A stretch of DNA of 64,000 nucleotides, taken from NCBI GenBank assembly GCA_049303575.1, contig JBAQNH010000002.1:11264-75263 (forward strand), read 5' to 3'. Position numbers and translations under genes: made by a program. Origin of the DNA: Microgenomates group bacterium. Lineage in GTDB: Bacteria > Patescibacteriota > Microgenomatia > UBA1400 > MFAQ01. This document shows positions 4,535 through 22,352 of this stretch, piece by piece (the first letter of the stretch is position 1; every line of letters starts with the position of its first letter). Under the pieces are notes generated by a model that saw only the letters and a list, made by a program, of their open reading frames with translations, made no database searches and was not told the origin of the DNA.

Positions 4535-4898
4535 AGCGGAGTACTACGACCTCTGCAGACTTCTAATTTCTAATCGATAGGCGGTCACCCACTCTATCTA
4601 CTTTCATTAAACACGAAGTTTAACCGAAAGTCAAAACTAGATCTCCCTTCGTACTAATAGTTTCATTTTGTTTTCATCATGAGCCCAAATATTTTGTGTA
4701 ACTTTGTTTGTAAGTGTCTTCTCCATCTGTACGTAGGATCGACATTACACAAAACCGACTCGACTTCATGCTGAAAACTGCTACTTTAACCCTTCAGCAT
4801 TATCGTCACCGATTAATGCTTGTTATTTCGCTTCGCAATACTTACATTGCCGGAGGATTTTCACCTCCTAGAAAAAACTAGCGGAAGGCGCATATTAT
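3994..4898 (-). other. Group I intron with LAGLIDADG ORF, inserted in the 16S 1390-1400 region (UUGUACA | ..ACACUGCCCGUC); boundaries +/- 3 nt
   Basis: Conserved 16S sequence GAAUACGUUCUCGUUUCUUGUACA at 4899-4925 (rc) and ACACUGCCCGUCAAG at ~3975-3993 (rc) are separated by ~905 nt. Confidence 0.65.
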
Positions 4899-5201
4899 TT
4901 GTACAAGAAACGAGAACGTATTCACCGCGGTGTTGCTGATCCGCGATTACTATCAACTCCCTTTCATGCAGGCGAATTGCAGCCTGCAATCCAAACTGAG
5001 GATGGGTTTATAAGGATTAGCTCCGGCTCGCGCCTTGGCATCCCGTTGTCCCACCCATTACGCCATGTGTGTAGCCCTAGATATAAGCGCCATGCTGATT
5101 TGACGTCATCCCCTCCTTCCTCCTTGGAAAAATCCAAGGCAGTCTGCTATGGATATTTAACATAGCACAGGGGTTGCGTTCGTTACGGCACTTAAGCCGA
5201 C

Positions 5202-6065: not shown

Positions 6066-6355
6066 AGCTCACGACACGAACTGACGACAACCATGCAGCA
6101 GCTGTGTAACACCCTCGAAGGAGTCCCTGTTTCCAGGGATTTGCAGTTACATGTCAAATCTAGGTAAGGTTCAAGGTTTCGTATCCAATTAAACCACATG
6201 GCACGCTGATTGTGCGTTTCCCCGTCAATTCCTTTGAGTTTTAACCTTGCGGTCGTACTCCCCAGGCGGAACACTTAACGCGTTAGCTTACGCCACTCCC
6301 CTTGCGGGAAATAGCTAGTGTTCATAGTTTACGGCTAGGACTACAGGGGTCTCTA

Positions 6356-7236
6356 CATAACTGTTACTTCTTCCACAAAAGTGGAATACTAACCTCGATT
6401 TTCATCAAGGCGGCTAATCGTTTCTGATTAACTCTGTACATTACTGCACAGATCGGACTGTATCATGCTCCGATTTTCATCGGAGTCCGGCGTACAGTCT
6501 CTACGGGGTTTTTCTCTATATGGAATAAATTTATATTCAAACTCAGGCAAGATATACTCGCCCAACTTACTTTTTAATTCGTGCAAAGTTCTAAAGGGAA
6601 AATAAATAATATATTTTCCTTTGTTAATTCGCTTCGATGCCTGAATCCCGATGTTTTTCTTAATGGCTTTGATAAGTAAACTTACCTCTGCTTCAGAAAA
6701 ACTGTGAGTTTGGATTGATAAACCGGCATATTCTGCCGAGCCATCATCCATAATCCAGACAGCAAGTACCAAAGGATCAATTGCAGATGCTATCAATGAG
6801 ATAACAACTTTCTTGTGGTTTTTATAAAACAACTGATAATAATGGGTAAAAATAGGATGAGTTAAAGTCACAAACTCGGCAAAGTTGTAGTCTTTTATGC
6901 CGACTTTCTGAGAAAACTTTCTTATTTTCATTGAAATAATTGGTTCAAAAATACGCCATTTGTAATTTACCAAACTTAGCTGTTTAAGGCTATGTTTAAT
7001 ATGCAAACGACAATTCTTTCCCCGAAATCTCAAACCACCATCACCCAACATTGTTCCAATCAAAACGCTCCTTTGAGTTTTAGTTAAACAAAATTCATTC
7101 TTTTTATAGTTAAAAACTTCCCTCGGTGTTTTCCTCACTTATTCAGTATACCCGAAAGTAAACCGAAACCACAAGGACTTTCACCGATATAGCCGATTCT
7201 TTAATTACGCATTACTACGTAATGGGACTAGTCAAA
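6356..7236 (-). other. Group I intron with LAGLIDADG ORF, inserted at 16S ~788 (GGGAU | UAGAGACCCCUGUAGUCC)
   Basis: Exon ...ACGAAAGCUAGGGGAGCGAAAGGGAU ends in U; P1 can form between exon GGGAU and intron GUCCC. The intron ends ...GUUAUG (G) before UAGAGACCCC. The R-like (CCGUAGAGACUGUACG) and S-like (GAUACAGUCCGA) elements are present at 6440-6500. Confidence 0.75.
6428..7138 (-). CDS. LAGLIDADG homing endonuclease (double-motif) in 16S intron; GTG start
   Basis: 236 aa; motifs SVLIGTMLGDGGL and LAVWIMDDGSAEYAGL; start codon GTG embedded in the conserved ..ACACCGAGGGAAG.. intron block. Confidence 0.75.
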   Translation of the reverse strand: MRKTPREVFNYKKNEFCLTKTQRSVLIGTMLGDGGLRFRGKNCRLHIKHSLKQLSLVNYKWRIFEPIISMKIRKFSQKVGIKDYNFAEFVTLTHPIFTHYYQLFYKNHKKVVISLIASAIDPLVLAVWIMDDGSAEYAGLSIQTHSFSEAEVSLLIKAIKKNIGIQASKRINKGKYIIYFPFRTLHELKSKLGEYILPEFEYKFIPYREKPRRDCTPDSDENRSMIQSDLCSNVQS

Positions 7237-7989
7237 ATCCCTTTCGCTCCCCTAGCTTTCGTTCATCAGCGTCTGGAATGTCCTAGTTACCTGCCTTCGC
7301 TTTTGGTATTCTTCTTGATATCAACAGATTTCACTCTTCCACCAAGAATTCTAGTAACCCCGAACATCCACAAGTCTATCAGTTTAACGGACATCTCCGG
7401 GGTTGAGCCCCGGGCTTTAACCCGTTACTTAATAGACCGCCTACGATACTCTTTACGCCCAATAAATCCGGATAATGCTTGCACTCTACGTATTACCGAG
7501 GCTTCTGGCACGTAGTTAGCAAGTGCTTTCTAATAGGGTACCATCAAAATTTTTTCCCCTATCACAGTAGTTTACGACCCGAGGGCCTTCATCCTACACG
7601 CAGTGTCACTGCATCAGACTTTCGTCCATTGTGCAAAATTCCCAGTTGCTGCCACCCGTAGGTGTATGTTCCGTGTCTAAGTAACATTGTGGGGGACCAC
7701 GCTCTCACGTCCCCTAGCCGTCATAGCCTTGGTGAGCCATTACCTCACCAACTAGCTGATAGCAAACAGGCCCATCTATCGTCGGCCGGTTAAGGCCTTT
7801 CATCTTGCGATCTTATGCGGTATTATCTCGCCTTTCGGCGAGCTATTCCCCAACAAAAGGTAGGTTCCTGTCAATCCTCACCCGTCTGCCACTGATTTGG
7901 CCTTGCGGCCTCCTCCGTTCGACTTGCATGCTTAAGGTACACTGCCAGCATTCATCCTGAACCAGGATCAAATTCTCAATTAAAATTGA

Positions 7990-12034: not shown

Positions 12035-12961
12035 TCAAGACACAATCTTTTTTGCGACATTGATTTCTCTGTGTGCTTTTTCAAACCACTTAAACTGTGC
12101 TGTTCTATTCACCTCAAAAATTCTCCACTGTTTTTCCGTTTCGTCCCAAGCCACATCTAGTCCGGCAAAATCCGCTTTCAAGACTTTGGTTGCTTTCAAA
12201 CAAATCTCTTTTAGATCTTCCATCTGTTCATCGGTAAACTTCGGCTTTATCTTTGCCGTTTCCTCCATCAACTCAGCTGTTTGGAACTTATTCTTTTGTC
12301 TGTGCTTCATCATTCCGAGAACCTCACCTCTCAAAATCAAGACCCTAAACCATCTTCTCACCTTTAAAACAGGTTGAATTAAAACATCTCCCTCACTATA
12401 TTTCTGTGACAGTCTCACTAATCTTTCCAGAGTCTCCGCCAGCTTAACGTTTTTTCCGTGACTGCCAAAACGAGCTTTCACCATCACCGGTACGAAAGGA
12501 GTTTTTCTCTTTTCCAAGACTTCCAAGTATCGCTTCCAACCACGCCACCCATTAAACGATGCAAAAGGAATCACTGGCAAACCAGCCTGGGCCAAAAGCA
12601 CTCCCTGTTCCAACTTGCCCATCAAGGGATAAAATTTAAAACTTTCACTGTTGATTACCTGAATCTTTTTTTCTTTACCGCCTTGAGTTCTCAGATTTTC
12701 TAAATACTCCAAGATCACCGACTTTACTCCAAGCATCGACTCTCCACCTCTTTTTGTTGCTGCTCTGGGTATTACCAAGTCATACTCTTCCAATTTTTTC
12801 CCAGTCATCAAGTCAATCACCGGCTTACCCAGAGGACTAACTCCGAGTCGCACATGTTCGTAGTTCACTCTATCCACGTCATGTCCTAAGGCACTAGCCT
12901 CCTCAGCCAGTCTCCTTGGTTCATACTCTCCTCGAAATCTGGTTAGTATTAGAACGTTCAT
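12035..12961 (-). CDS. RimK-like ATP-grasp amidoligase (alpha-L-glutamate ligase family), paralogue 2
   Basis: 308 aa; architecture and motifs parallel to E. coli RimK (N-terminal MNVLILTR.., central ATP-grasp, C-terminal ..WRIFEVNRTAQFKWFEKAHREIN..). Closely related to the adjacent 12964-13875 gene, whose C-terminal block is ..IIEVNEAPQFKVFEKRTKIN... Confidence 0.7.
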   Translation of the reverse strand: MNVLILTRFRGEYEPRRLAEEASALGHDVDRVNYEHVRLGVSPLGKPVIDLMTGKKLEEYDLVIPRAATKRGGESMLGVKSVILEYLENLRTQGGKEKKIQVINSESFKFYPLMGKLEQGVLLAQAGLPVIPFASFNGWRGWKRYLEVLEKRKTPFVPVMVKARFGSHGKNVKLAETLERLVRLSQKYSEGDVLIQPVLKVRRWFRVLILRGEVLGMMKHRQKNKFQTAELMEETAKIKPKFTDEQMEDLKEICLKATKVLKADFAGLDVAWDETEKQWRIFEVNRTAQFKWFEKAHREINVAKKIVS

Positions 12962-12963
12962 AT

Positions 12964-13875
12964 TTATTTTCCGAATTTATTAATACAGTACTCCAATATT
13001 TTTCTGGGAGCGTTGATCTTGGTTCTCTTTTCAAACACTTTAAACTGTGGTGCCTCATTAACCTCGATTATGTAAACTTCACCCGTCTTTTTGCTGATCA
13101 CCATATCGGTTCCGGCTACCTCGACACCAAGAGCTTTAGCCGCCACTTCTGCTGTTCTTACAACTGCCTCGGGAATTTCCTGCAAGCCAATCGAGCTCCC
13201 CTGACTCTTATTTAAAATTAATTTTTCTTCTTTAACTTGTCGCTTAAATCCGCCGATGCATTTATATCCCACAGTCATCACCCGATAATCTCCGTCATTT
13301 TCGATATATTCTTGTACCAAAAATCCCCTTATCATTGGAATTTTTTCACCCCTAATTTTTGCTTTTTCTTTTCGCTCTTCCAAAACCTCTTTTAATTTTG
13401 TTAGGTCTCCATACTCACGAATCCAGAAAGTTCCCATACCATGACGTCCTCCTTGTGAAAGTTTCACAATTAACGGAAAAGTAGCTTCTCTTAAAAAAAT
13501 CTCCAGATCACTCCAAGTTTCGATGTAGGCTGACTTGGGATACGCCACTCCCGCCTCCGCCAGTTGCCAGGACATCACACTTTTAAAACGGCGCAATGGA
13601 CCCTCTGTCATCAAGTACTCGTCAACGACGGGAACGTTGTGTTTCTTGGCATAAAGCTGCAACAACTTACTCCACTCCAGCTCAGAACCAACGGAGCGGA
13701 AAAACCAACCATCAAAATCTTTCATGTCGACTTCCCCAAAAAGAATCTTTCCGTCAACCATTCTCAACTGGCGGTACTTAATGAGAACTAACTCAATTTC
13801 CAAACTCCTCGCCTCCTCCAAAAATCTCTGCTCGCTCTCGTCAAAAGTAATTCTGTGTAAATATGCAATTCTCAT
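12964..13875 (-). CDS. RimK-like ATP-grasp amidoligase, paralogue 1
   Basis: 303 aa; MRIAYLHR.. N-terminus, ..LIVKLSQGGRHGMG.., ..VYIIEVNEAPQF.. typical ATP-grasp signatures; 3-nt gap to the next gene. Confidence 0.7.
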   Translation of the reverse strand: MRIAYLHRITFDESEQRFLEEARSLEIELVLIKYRQLRMVDGKILFGEVDMKDFDGWFFRSVGSELEWSKLLQLYAKKHNVPVVDEYLMTEGPLRRFKSVMSWQLAEAGVAYPKSAYIETWSDLEIFLREATFPLIVKLSQGGRHGMGTFWIREYGDLTKLKEVLEERKEKAKIRGEKIPMIRGFLVQEYIENDGDYRVMTVGYKCIGGFKRQVKEEKLILNKSQGSSIGLQEIPEAVVRTAEVAAKALGVEVAGTDMVISKKTGEVYIIEVNEAPQFKVFEKRTKINAPRKILEYCINKFGK

Positions 13876-13882
13876 GACTTAA

Positions 13883-15199
13883 TTAAACACTAGTTTTCTT
13901 TCTAATTCTTATTACCCCCGGATCCACCACAAACTCTTTAAGATCTCGTCTGCCAATGAGCAACTGCCGTCTCAACTCGGTTCTGTTAGTGACACTTGCT
14001 CTTGTTCTAATTACTCTACCCTTAAGTTTAAAGGTTATCGCCACAATTGTTCTTTCTTCAAATCCCAACGCATTTTTAACCTTTTTCATCCATAAAACAT
14101 TTTCCGGTGCCAAAAGTCCGAGTTCCAACGCTAAATTTTGGTCGATTGAAGTACTTCTGGCTCCGGTATCGATTTTACATGGCACATCAACCCATTTCTT
14201 TTTTCCGGTCTTTACCCTTACGGACTCAAAAATTCCTAAAACAGGTTTTTCTTCTCCTGCAAACAACACTCTGTTGGCAAACTTACTCGCAAAGAGAGAC
14301 TTCCCTATCTTTACTCCACTCTCTAGGTTATCTACTTCCAGTCCCTCGACTCTTTGTAGTCTTCGCCTTAGTCCGGTCATGTTAGCCAGTTGTATTGAAA
14401 GACCCGGTTGATCATTCAACTCCAGCACCACCGGTCCTTTATCACCATCAATGAGCATGTCTACCGACAAATATGGTAAGTGAGATATTTTCTGTGTTTT
14501 TACCGCCATTAGAAGAATCTTGTTCCAGTAAGGAATCGCAATTCCGTTGACTTTTTTGTTGGTATCGGGGAAATACTTCAGTGGGCTATTTTTGTAAACT
14601 CCATGGGTCGTAATTCCGGTAGCCAAATCAATACCTAGTCCAATAGCTCCCTGGTGTAGATTTGCTTTTCCGCCACTTTCTTCAGTCGGCAAACGTAGCA
14701 TCGCCATCACCGGAACCTTGTTAAAAACAATTACTCGAACATCAGGTGCACCACCAACCGCCAACTTCTTAAATTTAGGATGGATTGTAATCCTTTCTTC
14801 AATCATCGCTTTGTCAGGCAGATTATTGTGTGAGTACTTTCCCTCAACTATGTCCACGGTGTGGAGTACTAGATCCTCAACACTCACCTTTTTTCCGTCC
14901 ACTGTCCAAAACTTTCCTTCTTCTTTAGCCGGACGTTTGATTAACAAAATTCCTTGTCCTCCAAAACCCTGAACCGGTTTCACGGCAAATCCCTCGGTAA
15001 GTTTGCTCCAGTCAAAGTCTCTTACCTCGTGTGCATCCTTAAGAACACCCAGTAATCTTGGATGAGGCACGCGGGCACGTTTGAGCATTCTCTTCGTCAA
15101 GAGTTTGTCGTCAGCCCTTTTTCTTGCCGACTTTTTATTAAGTAACAAGTAATCGGCAGACCTGGCATTGAGTCCTAGTATGTCGCTCAGTCTCATCAT
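13883..15199 (-). CDS. Fusion protein: alpha-L-glutamate-ligase-related ATP-grasp domain (N-terminal) + retropepsin-like aspartic peptidase domain (C-terminal, D-T-G-A)
   Basis: 438 aa; the N-terminus ILGLNARSADYLLLNKKSARKRADDKLLTKRMLKRARVP matches my recollection of the RimK-related 'GMNRRN..Y...DDKL.TK' family. The C-terminus ..WVDVPCKIDTGARSTSIDQNLALELGL carries the D-T-G-A aspartyl-protease signature found in the COG4067 'Zn_protease' family that accompanies RimK-like ligases. Confidence 0.6.
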   Translation of the reverse strand: MMRLSDILGLNARSADYLLLNKKSARKRADDKLLTKRMLKRARVPHPRLLGVLKDAHEVRDFDWSKLTEGFAVKPVQGFGGQGILLIKRPAKEEGKFWTVDGKKVSVEDLVLHTVDIVEGKYSHNNLPDKAMIEERITIHPKFKKLAVGGAPDVRVIVFNKVPVMAMLRLPTEESGGKANLHQGAIGLGIDLATGITTHGVYKNSPLKYFPDTNKKVNGIAIPYWNKILLMAVKTQKISHLPYLSVDMLIDGDKGPVVLELNDQPGLSIQLANMTGLRRRLQRVEGLEVDNLESGVKIGKSLFASKFANRVLFAGEEKPVLGIFESVRVKTGKKKWVDVPCKIDTGARSTSIDQNLALELGLLAPENVLWMKKVKNALGFEERTIVAITFKLKGRVIRTRASVTNRTELRRQLLIGRRDLKEFVVDPGVIRIRKKTSV

Positions 15200-15209
15200 T
15201 ATTTATTAT

Positions 15210-16070
15210 TTATTTCGAAAGTAATTTTCTAAATCTCCATATCTCCAAGAGTCTCAATCCCTTGTATGTTCCAATCAGATAATCAAGCCCCAAAATTCCA
15301 ATTACCGAGATCTCAGGATGGAGCAATACCTGCGACTGGATCCAAGGAGCACTCATCAACTTGTAAGCAATCAAGGCCACAATCACCGTTTCTACCGTCA
15401 TCCACATCGAAGTAGAAATACTTCTGGTAATTTGTGCTTCAATGAATGTCTCTGCCAGCAATACGAAAAGCATAATCGGGAAAATACCCACACTCATCAG
15501 CCTTTCCAAACCAATCAAGGGAGACATCAAAAGCAGTAGTAGTACTGCCATGGAAACTACCCAAATCAAAATCGCTAGCTTAGGAAAATAAGGCACCTTC
15601 ACTTTTTTAATTAGCATTCTCCCCAGCGTCGCCACCCCAAGAATGAAAAACAGCAACACCACTCCTGCCAACCCACCAGTAGACAAAAATGCTACCGAGA
15701 GTAACGCCGGCGTGATCATGCCAAAACCGGAAACACCCACCACTTGTCGAGAAAAAGCTACTAAAGCGGCAACTAGTGGAAATAGAAATAAAAGTACCAG
15801 TGTGTTAGGTGACACTCCTTCAGACACTGCTTTTCGCATGGCAATCTTTAACACATTCTTACCCCACCATCCGGTTAATTTCTGCTCGTTCATCAGAGTG
15901 GTCAATCTGTCACCCTTCTCACTAGGAATAGTGAGATCTACCCCTCTTTCCACCACCACCTCTGCCGAAACGGAAGCCACGGGGACTTCATCCTCTAAAG
16001 GAGCCGCCCAAGACTTAACTGGGAAGAGGAAAAATAAAAATATTGCCAGCACCATCAATACTTTTTTCAT
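15210..16070 (-). CDS. Secreted/7TM membrane protein (7TM domain of the transglutaminase-7TM family, without the transglutaminase domain)
   Basis: 286 aa; signal peptide, ~60-aa periplasmic segment, then 7 hydrophobic helices; first gene of the four-gene minus-strand operon with the ATP-grasp genes (gaps 3-10 nt). Confidence 0.5.
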   Translation of the reverse strand: MKKVLMVLAIFLFFLFPVKSWAAPLEDEVPVASVSAEVVVERGVDLTIPSEKGDRLTTLMNEQKLTGWWGKNVLKIAMRKAVSEGVSPNTLVLLFLFPLVAALVAFSRQVVGVSGFGMITPALLSVAFLSTGGLAGVVLLFFILGVATLGRMLIKKVKVPYFPKLAILIWVVSMAVLLLLLMSPLIGLERLMSVGIFPIMLFVLLAETFIEAQITRSISTSMWMTVETVIVALIAYKLMSAPWIQSQVLLHPEISVIGILGLDYLIGTYKGLRLLEIWRFRKLLSK

Positions 16071-16115: not shown

Positions 16116-16697
16116 TTGACTAATGACTATATTTTCTCTACTATGATAGTAGCTATGAATCTAGGCAAAATATCTCCCTTTCTTCTCATCGCTTTGGGCG
16201 TCTCTTTAGGTCTCTTTGGCTTCTTCCTCATTCTGGCTAATCCCTTTGGCTGGAAATTTAATCTTCCCTCCCTAATTCCCCAAACAACCACCACCACTCG
16301 TAATGGTGAAAAACTCCCCAAGGGTGTCGTCCAAGCCCCTACGCCCTATTTATTTCTTCCTCACGGTAAACAAACCTACAATGTCCGAGGTGGAGACGAC
16401 AAGATCTCGATAATCACTACCGTTATCTACGACCCCCTCGATCCCAAAAAAGACTCCACTCAGATAATTTCTGTCACTGCCAAAAGCAAAGAGCAAATCA
16501 ACTCGATTTCTCTCACTATGAACACCGATAACCAAACAAAGGTGTATCCCATGACTTTTAGCTCGGGAACAAAGTTAAACGGTCTCTGGACAGCTTCTTT
16601 TATTGCTTCCGATACCTACGAAAAAACATATGATGTCTCTTTTGAAATTATTACCGAGCTGGGCAACAAATCCATTCAGCCCATGCCGTTAAGATAA
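16116..16697 (+). CDS. Secreted/membrane-anchored hypothetical protein (193 aa)
   Basis: N-terminal hydrophobic anchor (ISPFLLIALGVSLGLFGFFLILA), Thr-run linker, then a beta-rich domain; immediately upstream of the tail-fibre-like gene. True start may be an internal Met. Confidence 0.45.
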   Translation: MTNDYIFSTMIVAMNLGKISPFLLIALGVSLGLFGFFLILANPFGWKFNLPSLIPQTTTTTRNGEKLPKGVVQAPTPYLFLPHGKQTYNVRGGDDKISIITTVIYDPLDPKKDSTQIISVTAKSKEQINSISLTMNTDNQTKVYPMTFSSGTKLNGLWTASFIASDTYEKTYDVSFEIITELGNKSIQPMPLR

Positions 16698-16705
16698 CAA
16701 AAAAT

Positions 16706-19042
16706 ATGAAAAAAATAGCCGCCCTTCTCTCACTTATCTTCTTCCTCTTCGTTACTAAGTCGTCCGCAGATGCCGCCATTGGATACTGTAATTTTTCTCC
16801 GGAAGGCGCTAATGGCCAGCCCTACGGTGATGTTACTATCAATTCAAACTGTGTTATCTACGAATCTGTCAACGGAACTTCGCTTGGTAATTTAACACTC
16901 CAAAACTCCATAATTACTCTACACTCAACTTTAGTTTTTTCTCCAGGAAAGCAGATTAGTATTGGTCAAAACTCCATCATCTACGTAAACACCGGCGGCA
17001 AAATCACCCAAAGTGGACTCTGTATCAAAGATGCCGATGGAGATGGCTACGCCGATGTTATCACCCTCAATGAAGATCCGGAATCAGGAGTTACTCTCAC
17101 TAATCCGATTACCCAAATCGGCAAAGTTGAAGCAAACGCAAATGGCAGTTGTCCTTCAGGTTATGTTCCAAGTGACATCAATGTCCAAAATCTCACCATG
17201 GTTGATGCCGATCCTCTTACACCCAGCGCTACCACCATTGCTACCGCTGACCGTGAGCTTCTTCGTCTCGGCTTTATGATAAATGGTGTCAAGGATGTTT
17301 TTGCTGGCACCGGAGATATCCAGGTTGTCAACAAAAACCTTCTTGTCTGTAATGGACTTAGCTGTCCAGCAGATAACTTTGCCAGCCTTACCCCAGCAAC
17401 TGGCAATGTCTACGTCGGCGGTAAAGTCGGTATTGGAACGACAAACCCTACAAGTGCGCTTAGTATCGCCGGCAATATTTATTCTGATGCTTATATCAGC
17501 AAAATTGTCCAGGAACGCGCTGGCTATTACACCACTTATTCTGAGTTGGTCACTAGTCCTGTAGGGCAAGGTGCCTCATGGTCCGTTAACTCCACTTACG
17601 ATCCAGGTGTAGGCAGTGGTGTGACAAACTCCACTTTTAAAGTTAATGCTGGTACTTACAATACTGGCGCCGGAATGATTCGCTTCGATGGTAATAGTAA
17701 GTACTGGGGCGCTTGGATGTCGGGAGCCTCTGGTGGGCAAGGTACTGCTGTAACCTTCACACAACTTGCAAATCTTAGTACCAATGGAAGTTGGTTAAGC
17801 TCGCGAGGAAGCAATTTAGATTTTTACCTTACTAGTGCTGGCAATGTTGGAATTGGTACCACTGCCCCAGGAGAAAAACTAGAGGTCGAAGGATTTATCA
17901 AGATACCAAATGCTACCAACTCTGATAACAATTCGCCCGGAATCGTCTATAACAGTGATGATGATTTTTATGACAGTACCCGGGCAGTTTATCTCAATTC
18001 ATACGGATATGGCTTTAAGGTAAATACCCAAAGCGGTAGTGTAGGCCCTTACATTTCTGGTTGGGGTGGTATAGATTTTTATGCTGGCAACGCGCAAAAA
18101 ATGATTTTAACCCAAACTGGTGAGGTTGGAATTGGAACCACTGCCCCGGGTGAAATACTAGAGGTCAACGGTAATATCAGAACCACACCGAATAGGTCTC
18201 TACCAAATTTTGTTCTTGACTCTATTACCACAGGTGATAACTGGACTGCCCAAGGTGCTTACATTTCAATTGGTGAGGGTGGCGCTTTAGGAAGCGCTGC
18301 CATGCACATGACGTATACCGGAGACGGATATGGTTACACTGGAACAGGTACCGTCACTGCTGGTGTCCCGGCAGGTGGATACTGGCGATATCAATATAAT
18401 GCACAAAATATATATACTCCCGGAGCAGTCACTGTTGGTTCTTTGACTAGTGGCGCAGGAACTTTTTCCAGTACCGTAACAACCACCGGACAAATGTGGA
18501 TAAATAATGCTTCCCCCACAATATACTTTAAAGATACTGATCATCGCGGAGCAATGCTTCACAACAATAGTAACCTCTTTTATGTTTTAAGAGGCTGTGA
18601 AGCCACACAATCTACTACGTGGTGTACTGTTGGTGGCGTCTGGCCATTCGTTATTAACCTGGAAACCAACGCCATTACTACCGGAGGATCGATAACTGCC
18701 ACATCTGATATTCGGTTAAAAACCAATATCAAACCTCTTCCGGAAAATACACTGGACAAAGTCAAGCAGCTTAGAGGTGTGTATTTTAACTGGAAAACCG
18801 AGGCTGATATGGGAAACGCCCGCCAAATTGGTGTCATTGCTCAGGAAGTGGAAAAGATCTTCCCAGAACTTGTTATAACAAGTCCCGATGGATATAAGGC
18901 TGTCGGTTATGATCGCCTTGGACCTATTCTCATCGAAGCCATCAAAGAACAGCAAGTCGAAATTGACTCTCTTAAGTCACAGATAACTGACTTAAAAAAT
19001 GAAGTCGATCAAATTAAACAACTTCTAAAAATGCCAAGATGA
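16706..19042 (+). CDS. Secreted tail-fibre/tail-spike-like surface protein with C-terminal intramolecular chaperone (peptidase S74-like) autoprocessing domain
   Basis: 778 aa; signal peptide MKKIAALLSLIFFLFVTKSSADA; three repeats of VGIGTT(N/A)P(G)E.LEV.G; C-terminus ...ATSDIRLKTNIKPL...LRGVYFNWK...IGVIAQEVEKIFPELV...GYDRLGPILIEAIKEQQ matches the S-D-x-R-L-K autocleavage motif and chaperone domain of phage endosialidase/tail-fibre proteins. Confidence 0.7.
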   Translation: MKKIAALLSLIFFLFVTKSSADAAIGYCNFSPEGANGQPYGDVTINSNCVIYESVNGTSLGNLTLQNSIITLHSTLVFSPGKQISIGQNSIIYVNTGGKITQSGLCIKDADGDGYADVITLNEDPESGVTLTNPITQIGKVEANANGSCPSGYVPSDINVQNLTMVDADPLTPSATTIATADRELLRLGFMINGVKDVFAGTGDIQVVNKNLLVCNGLSCPADNFASLTPATGNVYVGGKVGIGTTNPTSALSIAGNIYSDAYISKIVQERAGYYTTYSELVTSPVGQGASWSVNSTYDPGVGSGVTNSTFKVNAGTYNTGAGMIRFDGNSKYWGAWMSGASGGQGTAVTFTQLANLSTNGSWLSSRGSNLDFYLTSAGNVGIGTTAPGEKLEVEGFIKIPNATNSDNNSPGIVYNSDDDFYDSTRAVYLNSYGYGFKVNTQSGSVGPYISGWGGIDFYAGNAQKMILTQTGEVGIGTTAPGEILEVNGNIRTTPNRSLPNFVLDSITTGDNWTAQGAYISIGEGGALGSAAMHMTYTGDGYGYTGTGTVTAGVPAGGYWRYQYNAQNIYTPGAVTVGSLTSGAGTFSSTVTTTGQMWINNASPTIYFKDTDHRGAMLHNNSNLFYVLRGCEATQSTTWCTVGGVWPFVINLETNAITTGGSITATSDIRLKTNIKPLPENTLDKVKQLRGVYFNWKTEADMGNARQIGVIAQEVEKIFPELVITSPDGYKAVGYDRLGPILIEAIKEQQVEIDSLKSQITDLKNEVDQIKQLLKMPR

Positions 19043-19998
19043 TCGCTGTGCTCAAGAAGCTACACCCACCTACATATATCATCATTCTCTTGTTGAGTTT
19101 CTTCCTCTTGTTCTCTGCCAAAGATATTGTCTTTGCAGACACTGTCAGTTATCTTCCCATCACCATCTGGGGCACAACTCTTTACACCCTTCCTTTTTCA
19201 GCTTGCACAGGAGGTACCGGAGGTACCGTCAGCACTATCCCCTGGACAGGTACTTGTTGCGCAGAGGGTACTGGTGGAACAATTACCACCGTTGGTGGAT
19301 ACACAATTCACTCATTTTATAGCAGTGGTACTTTATCCATAACCACACCTAAAACAGCTCAAGTTCTCGTTATTGCTGGAGGTGGAGGAGGAGGCGCGGG
19401 TGGCATCGGTGGAGGAGGAGGCGCGGGTGGATATTTAACAAATGCTTCATACTCCCTCACCACACAAAGCTACACCGTTACCGTCGGAGGAGGAGGCGGT
19501 GCAGATCTAAACGGAGGCAACTCAGTATTTGGTACCATAACAGCTATAGGTGGTGGGGCTGGTGGTGCAAATAATGAAAGCGGAACAAGTGGAGGTTCTG
19601 GTGGGGGTTCCGGGAGAGGTACCAATTTCCAAATGTACGGAGGAAGTGGAACCGCTGGTCAAGGCTATGGTGGCGGTAATAGCGCGTATGCCGCAGGCGG
19701 AGGAGGTGGCGGCGCGGGTGGTGGTGGAACCGATGGTACCGGAGCAAACGGAAATTGGGGAGGAAATAGTGGAGTAGGTGTTGCCAATTCCATCAGCGGT
19801 GCATCCGTCTTTTATGCTGGTGGCGGTGCGGGTGCTGGTTCATTTACGGGAGGTTGTGGTGCTGTTTTATCAGGAGGCACTGCTTGTCAAACTAACGCGG
19901 CTGCTAATAAAGGCGCTGGTGGTGGTGGTATGTTCGGAACCGCAGCTGGTTTAGGCGGAAGTGGAGTGGTCATTGTCAAATATCCTGTCTGTCCTTAA
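19039..19998 (+). CDS. Secreted glycine-rich protein (poly-Gly/GGxGG repeats; phage-tail-fibre-associated glycine-rich domain type)
   Basis: 319 aa; start overlaps stop of the upstream gene by 4 nt (ATGA). Signal/TM segment, then >40% Gly with runs such as VLVIAGGGGGGAGGIGGGGGAGGY; the DNA contains near-perfect tandem repeats of ggaggaggaggcgcgggtgg. Confidence 0.6.
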   Translation: MIAVLKKLHPPTYIIILLLSFFLLFSAKDIVFADTVSYLPITIWGTTLYTLPFSACTGGTGGTVSTIPWTGTCCAEGTGGTITTVGGYTIHSFYSSGTLSITTPKTAQVLVIAGGGGGGAGGIGGGGGAGGYLTNASYSLTTQSYTVTVGGGGGADLNGGNSVFGTITAIGGGAGGANNESGTSGGSGGGSGRGTNFQMYGGSGTAGQGYGGGNSAYAAGGGGGGAGGGGTDGTGANGNWGGNSGVGVANSISGASVFYAGGGAGAGSFTGGCGAVLSGGTACQTNAAANKGAGGGGMFGTAAGLGGSGVVIVKYPVCP

Positions 19999-20030
19999 CA
20001 AGCAAGGTTAAATAATAATAAAAAAATAAT

Positions 20031-20852
20031 ATGGAAAATCGCAAAAAATTTGATCTTACCGGTGCCTTCATCGTTATTTTAGTTCTCTCGGTCGTTGCCC
20101 TACTAGTCTTTCTTGGCAACTTCGCCGTCAAAAATAATCTCCTTTCTCTACCCCAAATAAACTTATTTAGTAAAAATACCAAGGCCCTCAATCCAAACGC
20201 CTACTATTTCTCCTCCCCCATCTTCAATCTATATTCTGCCAAAATTACCCAAAAAACAAAAGACTCCCTCTCTGTCGATGTTGTTCCGGTAACTCCACCA
20301 GTAGGTTATGAAAATAATATCTCTAATTTCAAAATCAACGTCACCGATACCACAGAAATCACCAAACCAAAACTCTTTATTCCTTATGTCTTCAAAACAG
20401 TCAGTGACACTTCATCATCACCAGACGACAAACTCAGCTTTAATGATCTCTCCGTCGGGGAATTTATCGATATCATCCTTACTGAGGACCTTCGTACTGC
20501 CAATATCAACAATCTGGTCGCCAAAACCATCTCCCGAATTTCCGACTCCAATCTGCTCACCGGTGAGATCAAAGAAGTTAACCCTGGATCGATTATGGTA
20601 GTCGGTATCGTTCGTCCAATCAGTTTCAATCCCATACCAGCAAACGTTGCCATCATTTCTCCAACAGAGAAAAACTATACTATTAGCATTTCCGACAACA
20701 CGGAGATTGTCACAACTAACCAAACTGGTCCTCAAAGACTGAGTTCTGGAGACCTCAAAACTGGCACCTTTGTCACCGTTTACGCCGACGCTCCAATCAC
20801 AAATGACACCCTCTCTGCCGCCCTTATCTCCCTCTACAGTTTGGGTATATAG
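20031..20852 (+). CDS. Hypothetical secreted protein with N-terminal TM anchor (273 aa)
   Basis: ORF with hydrophobic N-terminal segment (FIVILVLSVVALLVFLGNF) and Ser/Thr/Asn-rich beta-type sequence; last gene of the plus-strand island. Confidence 0.45.
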   Translation: MENRKKFDLTGAFIVILVLSVVALLVFLGNFAVKNNLLSLPQINLFSKNTKALNPNAYYFSSPIFNLYSAKITQKTKDSLSVDVVPVTPPVGYENNISNFKINVTDTTEITKPKLFIPYVFKTVSDTSSSPDDKLSFNDLSVGEFIDIILTEDLRTANINNLVAKTISRISDSNLLTGEIKEVNPGSIMVVGIVRPISFNPIPANVAIISPTEKNYTISISDNTEIVTTNQTGPQRLSSGDLKTGTFVTVYADAPITNDTLSAALISLYSLGI

Positions 20853-20917: not shown

Positions 20918-21649
20918 CTACTGTGCCATCACTACGAATATCTTGTCATGCATCTCCCAAAACTTACCTTGTTCTCCGGCACACAAAGCGGCTTCAGCAG
21001 CTTTCTGAGCGTTAGGGTGGAAAGACAATGGGAAACTTCGGTACTCCAGACTGATATTTTCTCCATACTTGGTCAAAAGAGCTTCGATGGTAGGAAAGGC
21101 ACGATTACAGTAAGGACACTCAAAGTCGGTGTACTCCATGATTTTAATCTTGGCATTTTTACCGCCTTTTACATAACCGGTTCCGTATGTAATCTTTTCT
21201 CTCTTTAGCACCTCACCGGAAGATATCTTGGCTTTGTCTCCGGTACCATTCTTCAACTCGGCATCAATCACCGTCTCAAAATCAGACTGCGGCAACGAAC
21301 CAACTATTAATATTCCATTGATAAAAAATGATGGTGTTCCACTAACCCCTCTATTCTGACCCTCCGTGGACTCTTCTTTTACTTTGTTTGCAAAAGTACC
21401 ATCATCCAAACACTTATTAAAGTCCCCCGTATTCACACCCAGTCCCTTCGCTATTGTCTTCAGAGCCGATACCGAGATCTTCGACTCGGCTGTCGGAGCC
21501 GCCACGCTTGGGTTTGTATTTTCGGCCGCACCACTTCCTCCCCCTTTATATTGATCAACTTGTGCAGACAGTCTACCTACAAAGAAAGTCGCCACTAACA
21601 ACAAAAGCACCAAAAAAGGTGCGTATAGAGATTTTGTATTTTTAAACAT
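20918..21649 (-). CDS. Secreted DsbA-like thiol:disulfide oxidoreductase (thioredoxin fold, CPYC), apparently circularly permuted
   Basis: 243 aa; signal peptide and Gly/Ala linker. Residues ~65-140 (LGVNTGDFNKCLDDGTFANKVKEE...GVSGTPSFFINGILIVGSLP) look like the C-terminal half of a DsbA domain. Residues ~150-243 (KIKIMEYTDFECPYCNRAFP...FWEMHDKIFVVMAQ-stop) look like the N-terminal CxxC half. Confidence 0.55.
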   Translation of the reverse strand: MFKNTKSLYAPFLVLLLLVATFFVGRLSAQVDQYKGGGSGAAENTNPSVAAPTAESKISVSALKTIAKGLGVNTGDFNKCLDDGTFANKVKEESTEGQNRGVSGTPSFFINGILIVGSLPQSDFETVIDAELKNGTGDKAKISSGEVLKREKITYGTGYVKGGKNAKIKIMEYTDFECPYCNRAFPTIEALLTKYGENISLEYRSFPLSFHPNAQKAAEAALCAGEQGKFWEMHDKIFVVMAQ

Positions 21650-21711: not shown

Positions 21712-22101
21712 TTAATACTTCTTCCAGATTCTCTGTAATTTCATATCAAAACTTGCCAATTTTTCAGAACCGCTATTTTTTGCATATACCAGGTTGTAAG
21801 CATCCTCAAGATCATAATTAGTTTTCTTCATCAAGAAAACGGCATCCATCAATATTTTCTGGCTTTCCCATTTAATAAAACTCATAGCCAATACATCTCG
21901 CAATACCCGAGTCAAACCTTCTTTCTCTTTTCCATAAAAACTTTTCATTAACCAATAAATCTCAAAAAGTACTACCGTCGAACTTATCAGATCCTCCAGA
22001 CCTTCCGCTCCTCTTAAAAACAATTTTTTTATTTCTTCGACCTGAGCCTCATTATCATTTTCAATGATTCTCACAAAATAATTGGTGTCGACAAACTTCA
22101 T
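21712..22101 (-). CDS. vapC: PIN-domain toxin (VapC family)
   Basis: 129 aa; MKFVDTNYF (first Asp), ..FEIYW.. (Glu), ..DLEDAYNLVYA.., ..SFD.. conserved acidic positions; start overlaps antitoxin stop by 4 nt. Confidence 0.6.
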   Translation of the reverse strand: MKFVDTNYFVRIIENDNEAQVEEIKKLFLRGAEGLEDLISSTVVLFEIYWLMKSFYGKEKEGLTRVLRDVLAMSFIKWESQKILMDAVFLMKKTNYDLEDAYNLVYAKNSGSEKLASFDMKLQRIWKKY

Positions 22102-22352
22102 CTCTTTTTCTTACTAAAATACTCCATTTTTGCCTTCTCGATCATTTCATCAACATCCATATCCTTGTATCTCTCGGGTCTTTTCACACTTCCCATTAGT
22201 CTATACATTGCTGATAGTGCTGATTTCATTATCAGTTCATCGCCTCGCTTGGTAATCGTTAGTTTCTGTCCTTTCTTCAACCCAAGATCGGAAAACAATG
22301 AAGCGGGTAGGGTTATTTGTCTTTTGCTGGTAATCGTCGCCGTATATGTCAT
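22098..22352 (-). CDS. AbrB/MazE (SpoVT-AbrB fold) antitoxin, partner of the PIN toxin
   Basis: 84 aa; TSKRQITLPASLFSDLGLKKGQKLTI swapped-hairpin motif. Confidence 0.55.
   Translation of the reverse strand: MTYTATITSKRQITLPASLFSDLGLKKGQKLTITKRGDELIMKSALSAMYRLMGSVKRPERYKDMDVDEMIEKAKMEYFSKKKR

Follow-up and report, generated by a model that had tools for sequence, protein, structure and literature searches.

Self-cleaving S74 chaperone domains and the fibers that carry them have been described in several systems. In T5 pb1, the mature fiber ends at Thr1263 and Ser1264 is catalytic, and the binding site is unmasked only once the chaperone has been cleaved off (PMC4690869). Cleavage of MyRF was located at P586|S587 by mass spectrometry, S587 being equivalent to endoNF S911 (PMC8326128). 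The MAT fibers of Bdellovibrio are surface-exposed and bind prey glycans (Caulton et al.). In the Pam3 fiber gp24, a TNF-like plus glycine-rich module has been assigned to receptor recognition. Here, we describe an island of four plus-strand genes, W1 to W4, in a 64-kb window (the whole stretch of DNA analyzed). We give a probability of roughly 60% to the reading that it is a chromosomal locus passed on vertically in a Collierbacteria-like Microgenomates (CPR) clade, and that it builds a cell-surface, phage-fiber-type trimeric adhesin. Its central product, W2, reads as a MAT-like S74 surface fiber.

Organization of the island and predicted export of its products

According to the ORF list of the window, the island spans 16155–20852 between two minus-strand genes, a 7TM_transglut gene (15210–16070) and a DsbA-like gene (20918–21649); all four ORFs were found where the initial annotation had placed them. 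The exception in detail is the start of W1, whose ORF ends at 16697 and offers candidate starts at 16116, 16143 and 16155. The TTG at 16116, used by the mechanical ORF list, had been taken as the start; since seven homologs align from the ATG at 16155, W1 probably starts there and runs from 16155 to 16697 (180 aa). That TTG lies within the first hexamer of a promoter-like site, TTGACT-17 nt-TACTAT (16116–16144, plus strand), just upstream of W1. Because the site is a consensus match only, and four such sites were found in the region versus 8.7 expected from shuffles, it hints only weakly at a promoter. W2 (16706–19042) encodes a 778-aa fiber precursor. In it, a signal peptide is followed by a conserved N-domain and then by a beta-helical shaft and tip of mosaic make-up, and an S74 chaperone domain closes the protein. 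W2 is followed by W3 (19039–19998), encoding a putative secreted partner of 319 aa, and W4 (20031–20852), encoding 273 aa.

Signal peptides or N-terminal anchors had been proposed for all four proteins, and the lengths of the hydrophobic cores agree with this, assigning W2 and W3 to the first type and W1 and W4 to the second. W2 begins with a KK n-region and a hydrophobic core of 14 residues that leads into ADA|A, which predicts a Sec signal peptide of aa 1–23 (MKKIAALLSLIFFLFVTKSSADA|A; 16706–16774) with A-D-A at −3 to −1, conserved in homologs. In W3, a 16-residue core precedes VFA|D, and the predicted signal peptide covers aa 1 to ~33. Both cores have the length of cleavable Sec signal peptides; the hydrophobic runs of 20 residues in W1 and 21 in W4 have the length predicted for membrane anchors. 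A sequence scan found no second hydrophobic segment in any of W1–W4.

Behind its predicted anchor (~aa 6–28), W1 continues with the invariant LANPFGWK and a linker rich in Thr, which lead to a conserved ectodomain of ~120 aa. It has no Pfam domain and no sequence relative among solved structures. Across all related loci it is 51–90% identical, and its gene always lies directly upstream of the fiber gene. With 49 clusters among 5.8 billion proteins, the W1 family is as narrow as that of the W2 N-domain (29 representatives), and at least nine W1 matches sit on contigs equal in size to that of a fiber match. W1 is thus a candidate cell-surface anchor or dock for the fiber, for which adjacency in itself says little because the neighboring housekeeping genes are all syntenic too. 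W4, with an N-terminal membrane anchor and a beta-rich ectodomain, appears by sequence comparison to be a divergent yet recurrent last gene of the island: it is 86% identical in locus L002 and has 25–33% matches in L005, L009, L008 and L003. Searches of PHROG, NCBIfam and PADLOC gave no match for it, no Pfam family scored above its cut-off, and sequence comparison with solved structures turned up no relative.

The W2 fiber precursor

The C-terminal S74 chaperone domain proposed in the initial annotation was confirmed by a Pfam search, in which PF13884 (Peptidase_S74) matched aa 667–723 with an E value of 4.9e-21 and 75.2 bits against a cut-off of 22. From Pfam and phmmer, this putative intramolecular chaperone and self-cleaving protease covers aa 667–778 (18704–19039) and ends in a heptad-rich helix (~aa 735–778, 18908–19039). 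The SDIRLK motif (SDxxxK) supplies the Ser-Lys dyad, Ser667 (18704–18706) and Lys672 (18719–18721) being the catalytic residues predicted by homology. Cleavage had been placed between Ser and Asp, one residue too far downstream: homology to the cleavage positions of T5 pb1 and MyRF leads us to expect the scissile bond at T666|S667 (ITAT|SDIRLK). Among solved structures, phmmer matched W2 to S16 gp37 (6F45, 1.4e-5), MyRF (7DC3) and the phi29 appendage (3GUD), and the best solved-structure sequence matches were S16 gp37, MyRF, Bdellovibrio Bd2133 and phi29 gp12. A PHROG search returned 31 families at E≤0.1, tail and tail-fiber families making up most of the 25 listed. These matches support a relationship of W2 to phage tail fibers.

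The conserved N-domain (aa 24–240, 16775–17425) contains six Cys, a beta-rich core (~aa 41–161) and a Ca-binding-like motif, DADGDGYAD (aa 109–117, 17030–17056). An exhaustive HMMER search at E≤1e-10 retrieved only 29 cluster representatives among 1.84 billion, in which the domain always stands right after the signal peptide. Its identity of 45–91% across all loci is congruent with the W1 identities; tip identities are not. The AlphaFold2 model has a pLDDT of 61.9 (70–90 in the beta-rich core, <50 beyond), and at this moderate confidence it gave no significant fold match in the PDB; nor was a close relative found in viral contigs (IMG/VR). We propose that the N-domain forms the cell-proximal attachment end of the fiber.

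Three direct repeats had been reported in W2. They are real, with slightly different coordinates and with one copy weaker than the others. Copies 2 (AGNVGIGTTAPGEKLEVEGFI; 17838–17900), the reference copy, and 3 (TGEVGIGTTAPGEILEVNGNI; 18117–18179) are DNA repeats 81% identical over 63 nt. Copy 1 (GKVGIGTTNPTSALSIAGN; aa 239–257, 17420–17476), at the junction of N-domain and shaft, is weak as a DNA repeat (17420–17442, 74–78% over 23 nt) and encodes GKVGIGTTNPTSALSIAG, not the PGE.LEV form. Since the VGIGTT motif is conserved in 27 homologs, the repeats are not a chance match. In alignment, the copies match the repeats of Bd2133 and the GRVGINTDRPDEALVVHGN segment of MyRF, copy 2 aligning to the motif regions of both; this element is the MAT capping loop (Caulton et al.). 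By alignment, the motifs thus appear to correspond to the beta-helix capping-loop region of S74/MAT fibers and to mark the boundaries of cassette exchange, and are not incidental.

Cassette exchange in the fiber

W2 is a cassette mosaic in which the N-domain, like W1, is conserved and shaft and tip modules are swapped. In an identity map of 20-aa windows, modules A, B, C and D plus S74 assort independently, and VGIGTT motifs coincide with three of the four breakpoints. Shaft module A (~aa 258–378, 17477–17837) is kept at 85–100% in homologs P0002, P0003, P0004 and P0008 and replaced in P0005, P0006, P0007 and P0011. Shaft module B (~aa 400–470, 17901–18116) occurs only in this genome among close relatives, being 5–45% identical to every close homolog; in tblastn, its region has partial 31–36% matches to Thermus and Synechococcus phage tail fibers. 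The distal modules C and D (~aa 492–666, 18180–18703) form the end of the mature fiber and would become its free tip after the predicted chaperone release. Module C (~481–580) is kept in P0002, P0003 and P0005, and D (~600–666) in P0002 to P0007 and, at 65–80%, in P0009 and P0010; aa 577–666 are 37–52% identical to cyanophage and Aeromonas phage tail fibers (tblastn).

Recombination at the motifs is seen in both protein and DNA. Protein identity to P0011 of locus L003 stops directly after GKVGIGTTNP, and motif copy 1 forms the left-hand boundary of the replaced cassettes: compared with L016, nucleotides are 90–100% identical up to 17439, 13–57% over 17440–18459, and then 75–100%. Motif copy 2 holds the nucleotide breakpoint at 17840 relative to L002 and L015, and in L002 identity drops in one segment only, 17840–18079, the region of module B. 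From the tip through the S74 domain and the Cys-rich partner to the genes downstream, L013 agrees with L003, although the W1 and N-domain of L013 are distant.

This pattern bears on whether the fiber serves a purpose other than host recognition: it might fasten the cell to minerals or to a biofilm matrix, make CPR cells aggregate with one another, or belong to a structure associated with the envelope or S-layer. Proteins that end in S74 and bear the name "tail fiber domain-containing" also occur in free-living bacteria such as Hymenobacter and Minicystis, where no host is involved, and the sequence points to no particular ligand. However, fast cassette replacement, a constant cell-proximal end and swappable partners of the phage receptor-binding type argue, indirectly, against generic adhesion, and such a pattern is described for Bdellovibrio MAT fibers recognizing variable biological surfaces. 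Phage fibers likewise recognize variable biological surfaces by such swapping. We therefore consider another purpose unlikely. When close relatives are compared, variation is greatest in the internal cassettes, A to C, and not in the extreme tip D; for specificity mediated by the tip, a different distribution would be the simplest expectation.

W3 as a candidate partner, and its alternatives in relatives

The stop codon of W2 and the start of W3 share 4 nt (ATGA), an arrangement found in the window, L002, L003, L007, L008, L015 and L016; in L013, the partner gene starts one base past the fiber stop. Behind the signal peptide, W3 has a Cys-containing linker with TLYTLPF (aa 47–53). Its AlphaFold2 model (pLDDT 84.9; >90 for aa 75–319) shows a TNF-like beta-sandwich plus a glycine-rich lattice domain (aa 75–319, 19261–19995), a predicted fold also reflected in Pfam (Gly_rich_2, PF21722, E 1.9e-12), PHROG (phrog_2295, E 1.1e-40) and Foldseek matches to the Pam3 fiber gp24 (7YPX, E 7.7e-5) and a Bxb1 tail-tip chain (1.2e-4). 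Against BFVD, the model had 168 viral matches, with a best TM of 0.69. S16 gp38 was not among the structural matches (Foldseek PDB), and there was no GP38 Pfam match.

Partner type tracks the tip, not perfectly. A W3-type partner follows the fiber in L002, L015 and L016, and other relatives have a Cys-rich partner instead or none. Among close relatives, the Gly-rich partner is kept wherever the D plus S74 end of the W2 type is kept, and it is deleted in L017, whose end is replaced. Two loci do not fit: L008, whose end is 55–85% identical to that of W2, yet whose partner is Cys-rich, and L009, where nothing is coupled to the S74 fiber.

W3 and the Cys-rich proteins could instead be fiber-assembly chaperones, like phage Tfa and T4 gp38, absent from the final structure. 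A translationally coupled gene directly downstream is where phage Tfa chaperones sit, and W3 weakly matches phrog_863, "tail fiber assembly" (E 3.1e-5). Nevertheless, W2 already has its own intramolecular chaperone, an S74 fiber in L009 has no coupled partner, and the confident fold of W3 is that of the module to which receptor recognition is attributed in Pam3 gp24. Moreover, in other proteins, one from Levybacteria included, Gly_rich_2 is joined to the N-terminus of a type IV pilin, to a lectin-like domain (Laminin_G_3) or to PKD, which suggests display. An assembly role for the partners thus seems quite improbable.

Genomic setting

The CPR origin of the cell, proposed from sequence at the outset, is borne out by a Microgenomates protein record; the genome is Collierbacteria-like, and the closest named one is Candidatus Collierbacteria GW2011_GWA2_42_17. 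An episymbiotic lifestyle of this lineage is assumed from CPR biology. Across 12 independent related loci, the chromosomal position of the island does not change. In the longer loci (the window, L002/L011, L003/4, L005, L007, L008, L009 and L013), the insertion site between 7TM_transglut and DsbA/LeuRS/MurB is identical; the shorter contigs (L012 and L014–L017) show W1 directly upstream of the fiber. The island of L009 is interrupted by two inserted genes, one AbiEii and one AAA_14/DUF4143.

The initial annotation had seen no phage structural genes beside the island and argued against an intact prophage, and both statements held for the flanking proteins scanned. A prophage remnant, or a virion tail-fiber module of a phage infecting this bacterium, would explain why the W2 and W3 modules are abundant in phages (tail-fiber PHROGs, tail-fiber tblastn matches and the viral structural matches of W3) and why a fiber gene precedes a small partner, the order typical of phage fiber-chaperone and fiber-adhesin pairs. 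However, the 30 flanking proteins scanned across the window had cellular Pfam families or no match, and no phage family, whether capsid, terminase, portal, tail tube or integrase, was among them. All four proteins have Sec-type N-termini, which virion fibers are not known to need. The N-domain, the expected baseplate contact, has no close viral relative (IMG/VR) and belongs to a clade-restricted family, and the chromosomal site is the same even where W1 and the N-domain have diverged to ~45–60% identity, which argues that the island is not a prophage; this explanation is largely refuted. Less credible still is that the fiber belongs to a tailocin or to an extracellular contractile injection system, both of which use tail-fiber-like genes (PMC12923769), or that it is an anti-phage decoy or defense component, as the insertion in L009 might suggest: the scanned proteins of the window include no sheath, tube or baseplate family, W1–W4 have no PADLOC match, and the AbiEii insertion occurs in L009 only.

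Discussion

For the surface adhesin that we favor, the following course can be proposed. W2 would be exported by Sec and its signal peptide removed after Ala23. The S74 domain (aa 667–778) would then trimerize through its terminal helix and template folding of the beta-helical shaft, with the three VGIGTT...P...L.V.G motifs as capping-loop or register elements; domain and motif homology point to this role, which itself is known from the endoNF, T5 and MyRF literature. Once a correct trimer has formed, the Ser667/Lys672 dyad may cut Thr666|Ser667, freeing the 112-aa chaperone and exposing the distal tip. The mature fiber (aa 24–666) would be held on the cell by the N-domain, the likeliest dock, judging from co-conservation, being W1, possibly with W4. 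W3, translationally coupled to W2 and presumably secreted, carries a module of the kind that phages use for receptor recognition and, we infer, acts with the fiber. It may dock on the tip once this is unmasked, in the way gp38 docks on gp37, or work as an adhesin of its own. Recombination at the repeated motifs would drive the evolution of specificity: it exchanges the cassettes of shaft and tip, along with the partner gene, and leaves the cell-proximal end unchanged. The likely target would be the surface of whichever bacterium this cell, with its reduced genome, depends on.

The precedent of the Bdellovibrio MAT fibers, together with the pattern of tip diversification, makes the island a good candidate for host recognition and attachment. 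The likeness extends to the ends of the fibers: an S74 domain terminates 23 of the 27 fibers with this N-domain and is lacking in four, a split that parallels the one between S74 and non-S74 proteins among the Bdellovibrio MATs.

Organization and surroundings of the island

As initially proposed, the island consists of four consecutive plus-strand genes, which the mechanical ORF list places at 16116–16697 (W1, a membrane-anchored protein), 16706–19042 (W2, the 778-aa fibre), 19039–19998 (W3, the secreted partner) and 20031–20852 (W4, a second membrane-anchored protein). All four N-termini read as signal peptides or anchors, those of W2 and W3 being of the signal-peptide type and those of W1 and W4 of the anchor type. 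The hydrophobic core of W2 comprises 14 residues followed by ADA/A and that of W3 16 residues followed by VFA/D; judged from sequence, both fit cleavable Sec signal peptides, and the cores of 20–21 residues in W1 and W4 fit N-terminal membrane anchors. The alignment of W1 with six orthologues begins at the ATG at 16155. The TTG at 16116 falls in a promoter-like site (TTGACT-17-TACTAT, a consensus match only), as part of its first hexamer.

In a Pfam scan, the island is bordered on the minus strand by a 7TM_transglut gene (15210–16070) and a DsbA-like thioredoxin gene (20918–21649). The initial annotation had argued against an intact prophage, and this view holds: none of the 30 flanking proteins scanned across 64 kb matched a phage family, so no capsid or terminase gene adjoins the island. 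The flanking proteins are aminoacyl-tRNA synthetases, MurB, RelA/SpoT, MnmA, DNA ligase, FtsH, RecF and similar. None of the four island proteins matched NCBIfam, searches with PADLOC were likewise negative for them, and neither single-sequence nor family-profile queries with W1 and W4 detected a relative by sequence in solved structures.

Two further indications were considered and dropped. The slightly raised GC content of the island (0.44–0.47) was discarded as a sign of foreign origin, because many glycine codons account for it. Also set aside was the idea that the island is functionally tied to the 7TM_transglut/ATP-grasp operon running divergently from it, or to the neighbouring DsbA gene; the whole neighbourhood is collinear, and adjacency is therefore no evidence of such a link.

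Chromosomal fixation in one CPR clade

The exact W2 sequence is annotated in NCBI as 'MAG: tail fiber domain-containing protein [Microgenomates group bacterium]', and the bare domain call is therefore ordinary. The nearest named genome is Candidatus Collierbacteria GW2011_GWA2_42_17. Related loci were gathered through contigs encoding homologues and through a genome-collection scan with W1, giving 12 independent loci (listed as the window, L002/L011, L003/L004, L005/L006, L007, L008, L009 and L012–L017). In all 12, the fibre gene encodes the same N-terminal domain and is directly preceded by a W1 orthologue, and on the longer contigs the island sits between the RimK-RimK-ATPgrasp_ST-7TM_transglut operon and DsbA/LeuRS/MurB/RelA. 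An exhaustive HMMER search of 1.84 billion representatives found the W2 N-domain (aa 24–240) in 29 proteins at E≤1e-10, directly after a signal peptide in each. The W1 family, for which no Pfam domain was matched, is equally narrow (49 clusters among 5.8 billion proteins), and at least nine W1 matches lie on contigs equal in size to the contig of a fibre match. Pairwise identity tables show that the identities of W1 and of the N-domain fall together, from 91% to 45%. The scan of IMG/VR viral contigs, in which a single-sequence query reaches close relatives only, returned no close relative of the N-domain.

Membership of a phage module is thus opposed by the lack of any phage family among the 30 flanking proteins scanned, by chromosomal synteny and by an N-domain that has no close viral relative in IMG/VR and follows a Sec signal peptide. 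The locus is cellular and has been inherited vertically; it did not arrive by recent insertion. Three related records (L010, L012 and L013) are titled 'uncultured Pseudomonadales bacterium'; these titles look like taxonomic mislabels, since the contigs agree with Collierbacteria-like genomes in their W1 and fibre genes as well as in the order of the flanking genes.

The AlphaFold2 model of the N-domain places a beta-rich core of some 120 aa immediately behind the signal peptide. Nothing significant was found when this model was compared with the PDB using Foldseek (best E 0.23, weak beta-solenoid look-alikes), and the proteins that match the core alone are LRR, TSP1 and LamG proteins, which give no functional clue. 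Within the conserved N-domain, the segment DADGDGYAD (aa 109–117; 17030–17056) resembles thrombospondin type 3 calcium-binding repeats, and many short, repeated, weak HMMER matches stem from it. W2 has cysteines at aa 28, 49, 106, 149, 215, 220, 631 and 640, the first four of which (C28, C49, C106 and C149) are invariant in the fibre N-domain; W3 has cysteines at aa 56, 73, 74, 273, 283 and 318, and the partner proteins are Cys-containing or Cys-rich. The DsbA-like thioredoxin is secreted, has two thioredoxin-fold matches and is convergent to the island in all longer loci, with two copies in L008. A role in forming disulfides of the exported island proteins is possible.

S74 domain and expected self-cleavage

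The C-terminal S74 domain of W2 recognized in the initial annotation is borne out by a match of PF13884 to residues 667–723 of 778 (E 4.9e-21, 75.2 bits against a cut-off of 22), and W2 also matches many PHROG tail and tail-fibre families. A phmmer search of solved structures with the S74 region identified S16 gp37 (6F45, E 1.4e-5), MyRF (7DC3) and the phi29 appendage (3GUD). The Ser-Lys dyad is S667-D-I-R-L-K672, whose SDxxxK pattern aligns with SDRRIK in S16 gp37 and with the equivalent stretch of MyRF; the S74 variant of L003/L013 retains the serine and lysine as SSREYK/SSKYYK. Residues 735–778 (ILIEAIKEQQVEIDSLKSQITDLKNEVDQIKQLLK), the candidate trimerising helix behind the protease core, appear heptad-like and align to the C-terminal helix of gp37. 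An S74 end is present in 23 of the 27 fibres with the same N-domain and absent from the other four.

The cleavage site, first placed between Ser and Asp, has to be moved one residue upstream. In T5 pb1, the mature fibre comprises residues 970–1263, the catalytic residues are Ser1264 and Lys1269, and Thr1263 precedes the serine; uncleaved pb1 does not compete for the receptor (PMC4690869). In MyRF, mass spectrometry locates the cut at P586/S587, with S587 equivalent to S911 of endoNF (PMC8326128). Since T5 pb1 and MyRF are both cut just before the catalytic serine and W2 reads ITAT/SDIRLK, cleavage is expected, by homology, at T666/S667. The products would be a mature fibre of aa 24–666 and a released chaperone of 112 aa. 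On the pattern of established S74 biology, the domain would template trimerisation, the T666/S667 bond would be cut and the tip would be unmasked.

Repeated motifs and cassette mosaicism

Of the three direct DNA repeats initially described in the fibre gene, two stand, at 17838–17900 and 18117–18179 (81% identical over 63 nt), and the third (17420–17442) is weaker. The corresponding VGIGTT motif copies of the protein begin at nt 17426, 17846 and 18125 (aa 241, 381 and 474). The region aa 364–517, with its motif copies, aligns to the repeats of Bdellovibrio Bd2133 (8OND; phmmer whole-sequence E 0.0018), and in the search of solved-structure sequences one copy aligns to GRVGINTDRPDEALVVHGN of MyRF. 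In Caulton et al. 2024 (PMC10769870), the same element is the beta-helix capping-loop motif of the mosaic adhesive trimer (MAT) fibres of Bdellovibrio, has the form V-G-G/N-pi-x-x-P-x-x-x-L and recurs in MyRF. W2 carries three copies of this repeated motif of the MAT superfamily.

A map of identity to close homologues in 20-residue windows divides the fibre beyond the N-domain into four modules. Module A (about aa 258–378) is kept in the homologous fibres P0002, P0003, P0004 and P0008 and replaced in P0005, P0006, P0007 and P0011. Module B (about 400–470) is kept in this genome only, being replaced in all other close homologues, and module C (about 481–580) is kept in P0002, P0003 and P0005 and replaced in P0004, P0006, P0007 and P0008. 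Module D together with the S74 domain (about 600–778) is kept in P0002–P0007, is 65–95% identical in P0009 and P0010, and is replaced in P0008, P0011, P0013 and P0014. Nucleotide comparison of the window with L016, its closest relative, gives 90–100% identity through W1 and the N-domain to 17439, 13–57% (essentially unalignable) over 17440–18459, and 75–100% again thereafter; relative to L002, 17840–18079 alone is replaced. Three of the four breakpoints coincide with motif copies. The repeats are the seams of a cassette mosaic, and cassettes are exchanged at the motifs. The W2 family therefore shows the MAT arrangement of a constant proximal end and mosaic distal ends with S74 or non-S74 termini, the distal 170 residues being unrelated between most loci.

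In tblastn searches, short modules of the W2 shaft and tip are 31–52% identical to several phage tail fibres. These matches were considered as a clue to the host and rejected, as the modules are short and the phage hosts (Thermus, Synechococcus and Aeromonas) are unrelated, so that no host inference is possible.

Two members of the family depart from this layout. P0019 (L005:9001–12132, 1043 aa) is a non-S74 fibre with the same N-domain, repeated YYDxNNTxYYVDP-like units and a C-terminal coiled coil; no Pfam family matched it, and its end may be a different kind of chaperone or tip domain. The fibre-locus protein at L012:10533–12269 has 578 aa, 28 cysteines and an InlB B-repeat (Flg_new_2) extension before the N-domain, with one motif copy only and no S74 domain. 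It is followed, up to position 20530, by a run of at least eight plus-strand genes, several of which encode Cys-rich proteins. L012 looks like a differently elaborated version of the fibre locus.

The candidate secreted partner W3 and its alternatives

The start codon of W3 overlaps the stop codon of W2 (ATGA). W3 matches the Pfam family Gly_rich_2 (PF21722; E 1.9e-12, 48.1 bits against a cut-off of 24.3) and phrog_2295 (E 1.1e-40). Its AlphaFold2 model, based on 40 homologues, has a pLDDT of 84.9 overall and above 90 for aa 75–319, which are predicted to form a beta-sandwich and a glycine-rich lattice. A Foldseek search of the PDB with this model retrieved the Pam3 fibre gp24 (7YPX/7YFW; E 7.7e-5, probability 1.0, TM only 0.36/0.44) and also a Bxb1 tail-tip chain; matches with the TNF-like plus glycine-rich ectodomains of ALK/LTK were not significant (E >0.2). 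Comparison with viral models gave 168 matches at E≤1e-3 (best TM 0.69, rmsd 2.3 Å, 41% identity), all of them 'glycine-rich domain-containing proteins' from tailed phages, prasinoviruses and a haloarchaeal virus. By both profile and fold match, W3 contains the Gly_rich_2, or TNF-like plus glycine-rich, module. The tblastn search of annotated phages with W3 yielded no match, probably owing to the low-complexity filter.

For Pam3, receptor recognition has been ascribed to the TNF-like/glycine-rich module, which has been likened to the S16 gp38 adhesin (PMC9608196). W3 is not a detectable gp38 homologue: it has no GP38 Pfam match, and gp38 is not among its Foldseek PDB matches. The gene downstream of the fibre gene thus does not provide the gp38 homologue, with the fold of 6F45 chain D, that defines a gp37–gp38 pair. 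Gly_rich_2 also occurs in other proteins, where its fusion partners are Laminin_G_3, PKD domains and, in a Levybacteria protein, type IV pilin N-termini.

The type of partner tracks the fibre largely, not perfectly. A Gly-rich partner follows the fibre gene in the window, L002/L011, L015 and L016, all of which keep the W-type D+S74 end despite differing A–C cassettes. In L017, where this end is replaced, a 1.33-kb deletion leaves seven partner codons fused into W4. L013 has in common with L003 the tip and S74 domain (69%), a Cys-rich partner (47%) and the downstream genes, with W1 and the N-domain being distant. Small Cys-rich partners also occur in L007 and L008; the latter was missed by the gene finder and overlaps the fibre stop codon. 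L008 argues against strict coupling, since its D+S74 end is 55–85% identical to that of W2 but its partner is of the other type. No coupled partner is present in L009, which has an S74 fibre, or in L005, which has a non-S74 fibre.

A short T(L/V)YT(L)PF-like motif is common to different partner proteins. It occurs once or twice before the Cys pair in W3 (TLYTLPF at aa 47–53, 19177–19197) and in two or three copies at the C-terminus of the small Cys-rich partners at L007:6968–7366 and L008:11139–11498. The motif may serve these partners alike for docking, or the resemblance may be fortuitous, the sequences being short.

Proposed role

Outside a few cultured Saccharibacteria, in which type IV pili have been implicated, little is known of how CPR/Patescibacteria locate their hosts and stay attached to them. 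The locus described here is a concrete, testable host-recognition candidate for one Microgenomates clade. Phage receptor-binding parts make up the candidate fibre, whose anchor end stays constant and whose distal cassettes and partners are exchanged between close relatives.

A bolder reading, to which we give roughly one chance in four, is that a clade of Collierbacteria-like CPR bacteria carries a single 'host-range locus' that resembles a phage receptor-binding apparatus placed on a cell. A Sec-exported, self-cleaving trimeric fibre would be anchored by W1 and, after release of the chaperone, tipped by a coupled, interchangeable adhesin of the TNF-like/glycine-rich or Cys-rich type; recombination at the motifs would swap shaft, tip and partner cassettes between strains and thereby change the host bacterium to which the cell can attach. 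For the anchoring of W2, co-conservation makes W1 or W4 candidates, and it likewise hints at a physical or functional partnership of W2 and W3. Host recognition by the fibre would be in keeping with CPR biology and with the MAT precedent.

If the host-range-locus reading is true, CPR–host pairing could be predicted from the cassette and partner type seen in metagenomes, and a correlation of tip and partner types with host identity would make CPR–host pairs predictable in this way. The fibre concept, so far confined to Bdellovibrio-like predators in the form of MAT fibres, would be extended to an unrelated group with reduced genomes.

Other features of the window and of related loci

The 16S rRNA gene (2899–7983, minus) is split by large insertions. 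Rfam recognizes SSU rRNA pieces at 7172–7983 and 4900–6263, a group I intron at 3661–3899 and a group II D1-D4 element at 4519–4599, and three LAGLIDADG endonuclease ORFs lie in the split region (3920–4534, 5298–5969 and 6428–7138). The split gene is followed by tRNA-Ile(GAT) at 2898–2972. One study describes rRNA insertions of this kind as typical of CPR bacteria (PMC11270868). A second group I intron match (61606–61793, plus, 69.5 bits) lies near tRNA-Met (61335–61409, minus) and outside any rRNA match, and a tRNA-Ile with a TAT anticodon is located at 63545–63619 (minus).

The operon divergent from the island (12035–16070, minus) encodes, besides the 7TM_transglut protein, two RimK-like ATP-grasp proteins and a fusion of ATPgrasp_ST with a Zn_protease/RimB-like domain, and adjoins the island in all longer related loci. 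In L009, an AbiEii toxin gene and its upstream partner (1098–2370) separate the 7TM gene from W1, and the W4-like gene is followed by a gene for an AAA_14/DUF4143 ATPase (6424–7632), which suggests that the island locus is also a hotspot for the insertion of mobile or defence genes. Between DsbA and LeuRS of the window lies a toxin–antitoxin pair (21712–22352, minus) made up of a PIN-domain toxin of 129 aa and, upstream of it, a partner of 84 aa. The orthologue of this partner in L002–L004 has a weak MazE_antitoxin match; the pair is kept in L002 and L003/L004 and absent from L005, L007 and L008.

Comparison with known systems

Among the closest known systems are the MAT fibres of Bdellovibrio bacteriovorus, in particular the S74 subgroup (e.g., Bd3182) and Bd2133 (8OND). 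MATs are defined as surface fibres of a predator in which a signal peptide precedes a conserved, beta-rich N-terminal domain (about 130 aa), a trimeric shaft and S74 or other tips, and S74 self-cleavage and prey-glycan binding have been demonstrated in Bdellovibrio (PMC10769870). W2 is similarly encoded by a cell and not by a phage, and begins with a signal peptide and a conserved beta-rich domain. Its shaft has repeated V-G-..-P-x-x-x-L capping-loop motifs, whose copies align to Bd2133; an SDxxxK S74 end predominates, with alternatives in a minority (S74 in 23 of 27 fibres here and 13 of 21 in Bdellovibrio); and the cell-proximal end is constant where the distal ends are mosaic. In each feature that could be compared, W2 agrees with MATs, and it may work like an S74-type MAT fibre, the two N-domains being likened by beta-rich character and position only, not by homology. 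One difference is that one locus occupies one site per contig here, as opposed to 21 paralogues in Bdellovibrio, so that diversity lies between strains and not within a genome. Others, as far as the available text on MATs goes, are the strict linkage of the fibre gene to W1, a small conserved membrane protein, and the presence of a secreted partner that is translationally coupled. W2 also has its own clade-restricted N-domain, is shorter (778 aa versus about 1,000 aa) and belongs to a CPR bacterium instead of a Gram-negative predator. Our literature search brought up no work that links Patescibacteria to S74 or MAT fibres.

The pair of W2 and W3 recalls gp37 and gp38 of T2/S16, in which a gene for an S74-terminated fibre is also followed by one for a small glycine-rich protein. 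Among solved structures, the W2 S74 domain has its best sequence match in S16 gp37, from the gp37–gp38 complex 6F45, and the predicted glycine-rich lattice domain of W3 is of the class that the Pam3 authors compare with gp38 (PMC9608196). Unlike gp38, however, W3 has its own signal peptide and is not a detectable homologue, and the likeness is one of architecture, not membership. Compared with Pam3 gp24, W3 is cell-encoded, and the long N-terminal trimerising helix gives way to a signal peptide and a short linker that contains Cys.

With the S74 (CIMCD) spikes and fibres of phages (K1F endoNF, T5 pb1, S16 gp37 and the phi29/GA-1 appendages), W2 has in common a C-terminal S74 domain, a serine and lysine five residues apart and a putative terminal helix, and the Thr-Ser pair at its expected scissile bond corresponds to T1263/S1264 of T5 pb1 (PMC4690869). 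It differs in that a Sec signal peptide and a clade-specific N-domain replace the baseplate- or tail-attachment domain, and in that its gene lies outside any phage genomic context, chromosomally fixed and syntenic across a bacterial clade.

The ICA domain and beta-helical stalk of MyRF (7DC3) provide a non-viral protein with the same S74 chaperone, preceded, as in W2, by a G-x-V-G-I-x-T-x-x-P-x-x-x-L-x-V-x-G motif, and its cleavage maps N-terminal to the catalytic serine (PMC8326128). MyRF is a eukaryotic ER-membrane transcription factor whose cleavage frees a DNA-binding trimer, whereas the cut in W2 would unmask the tip of a fibre.
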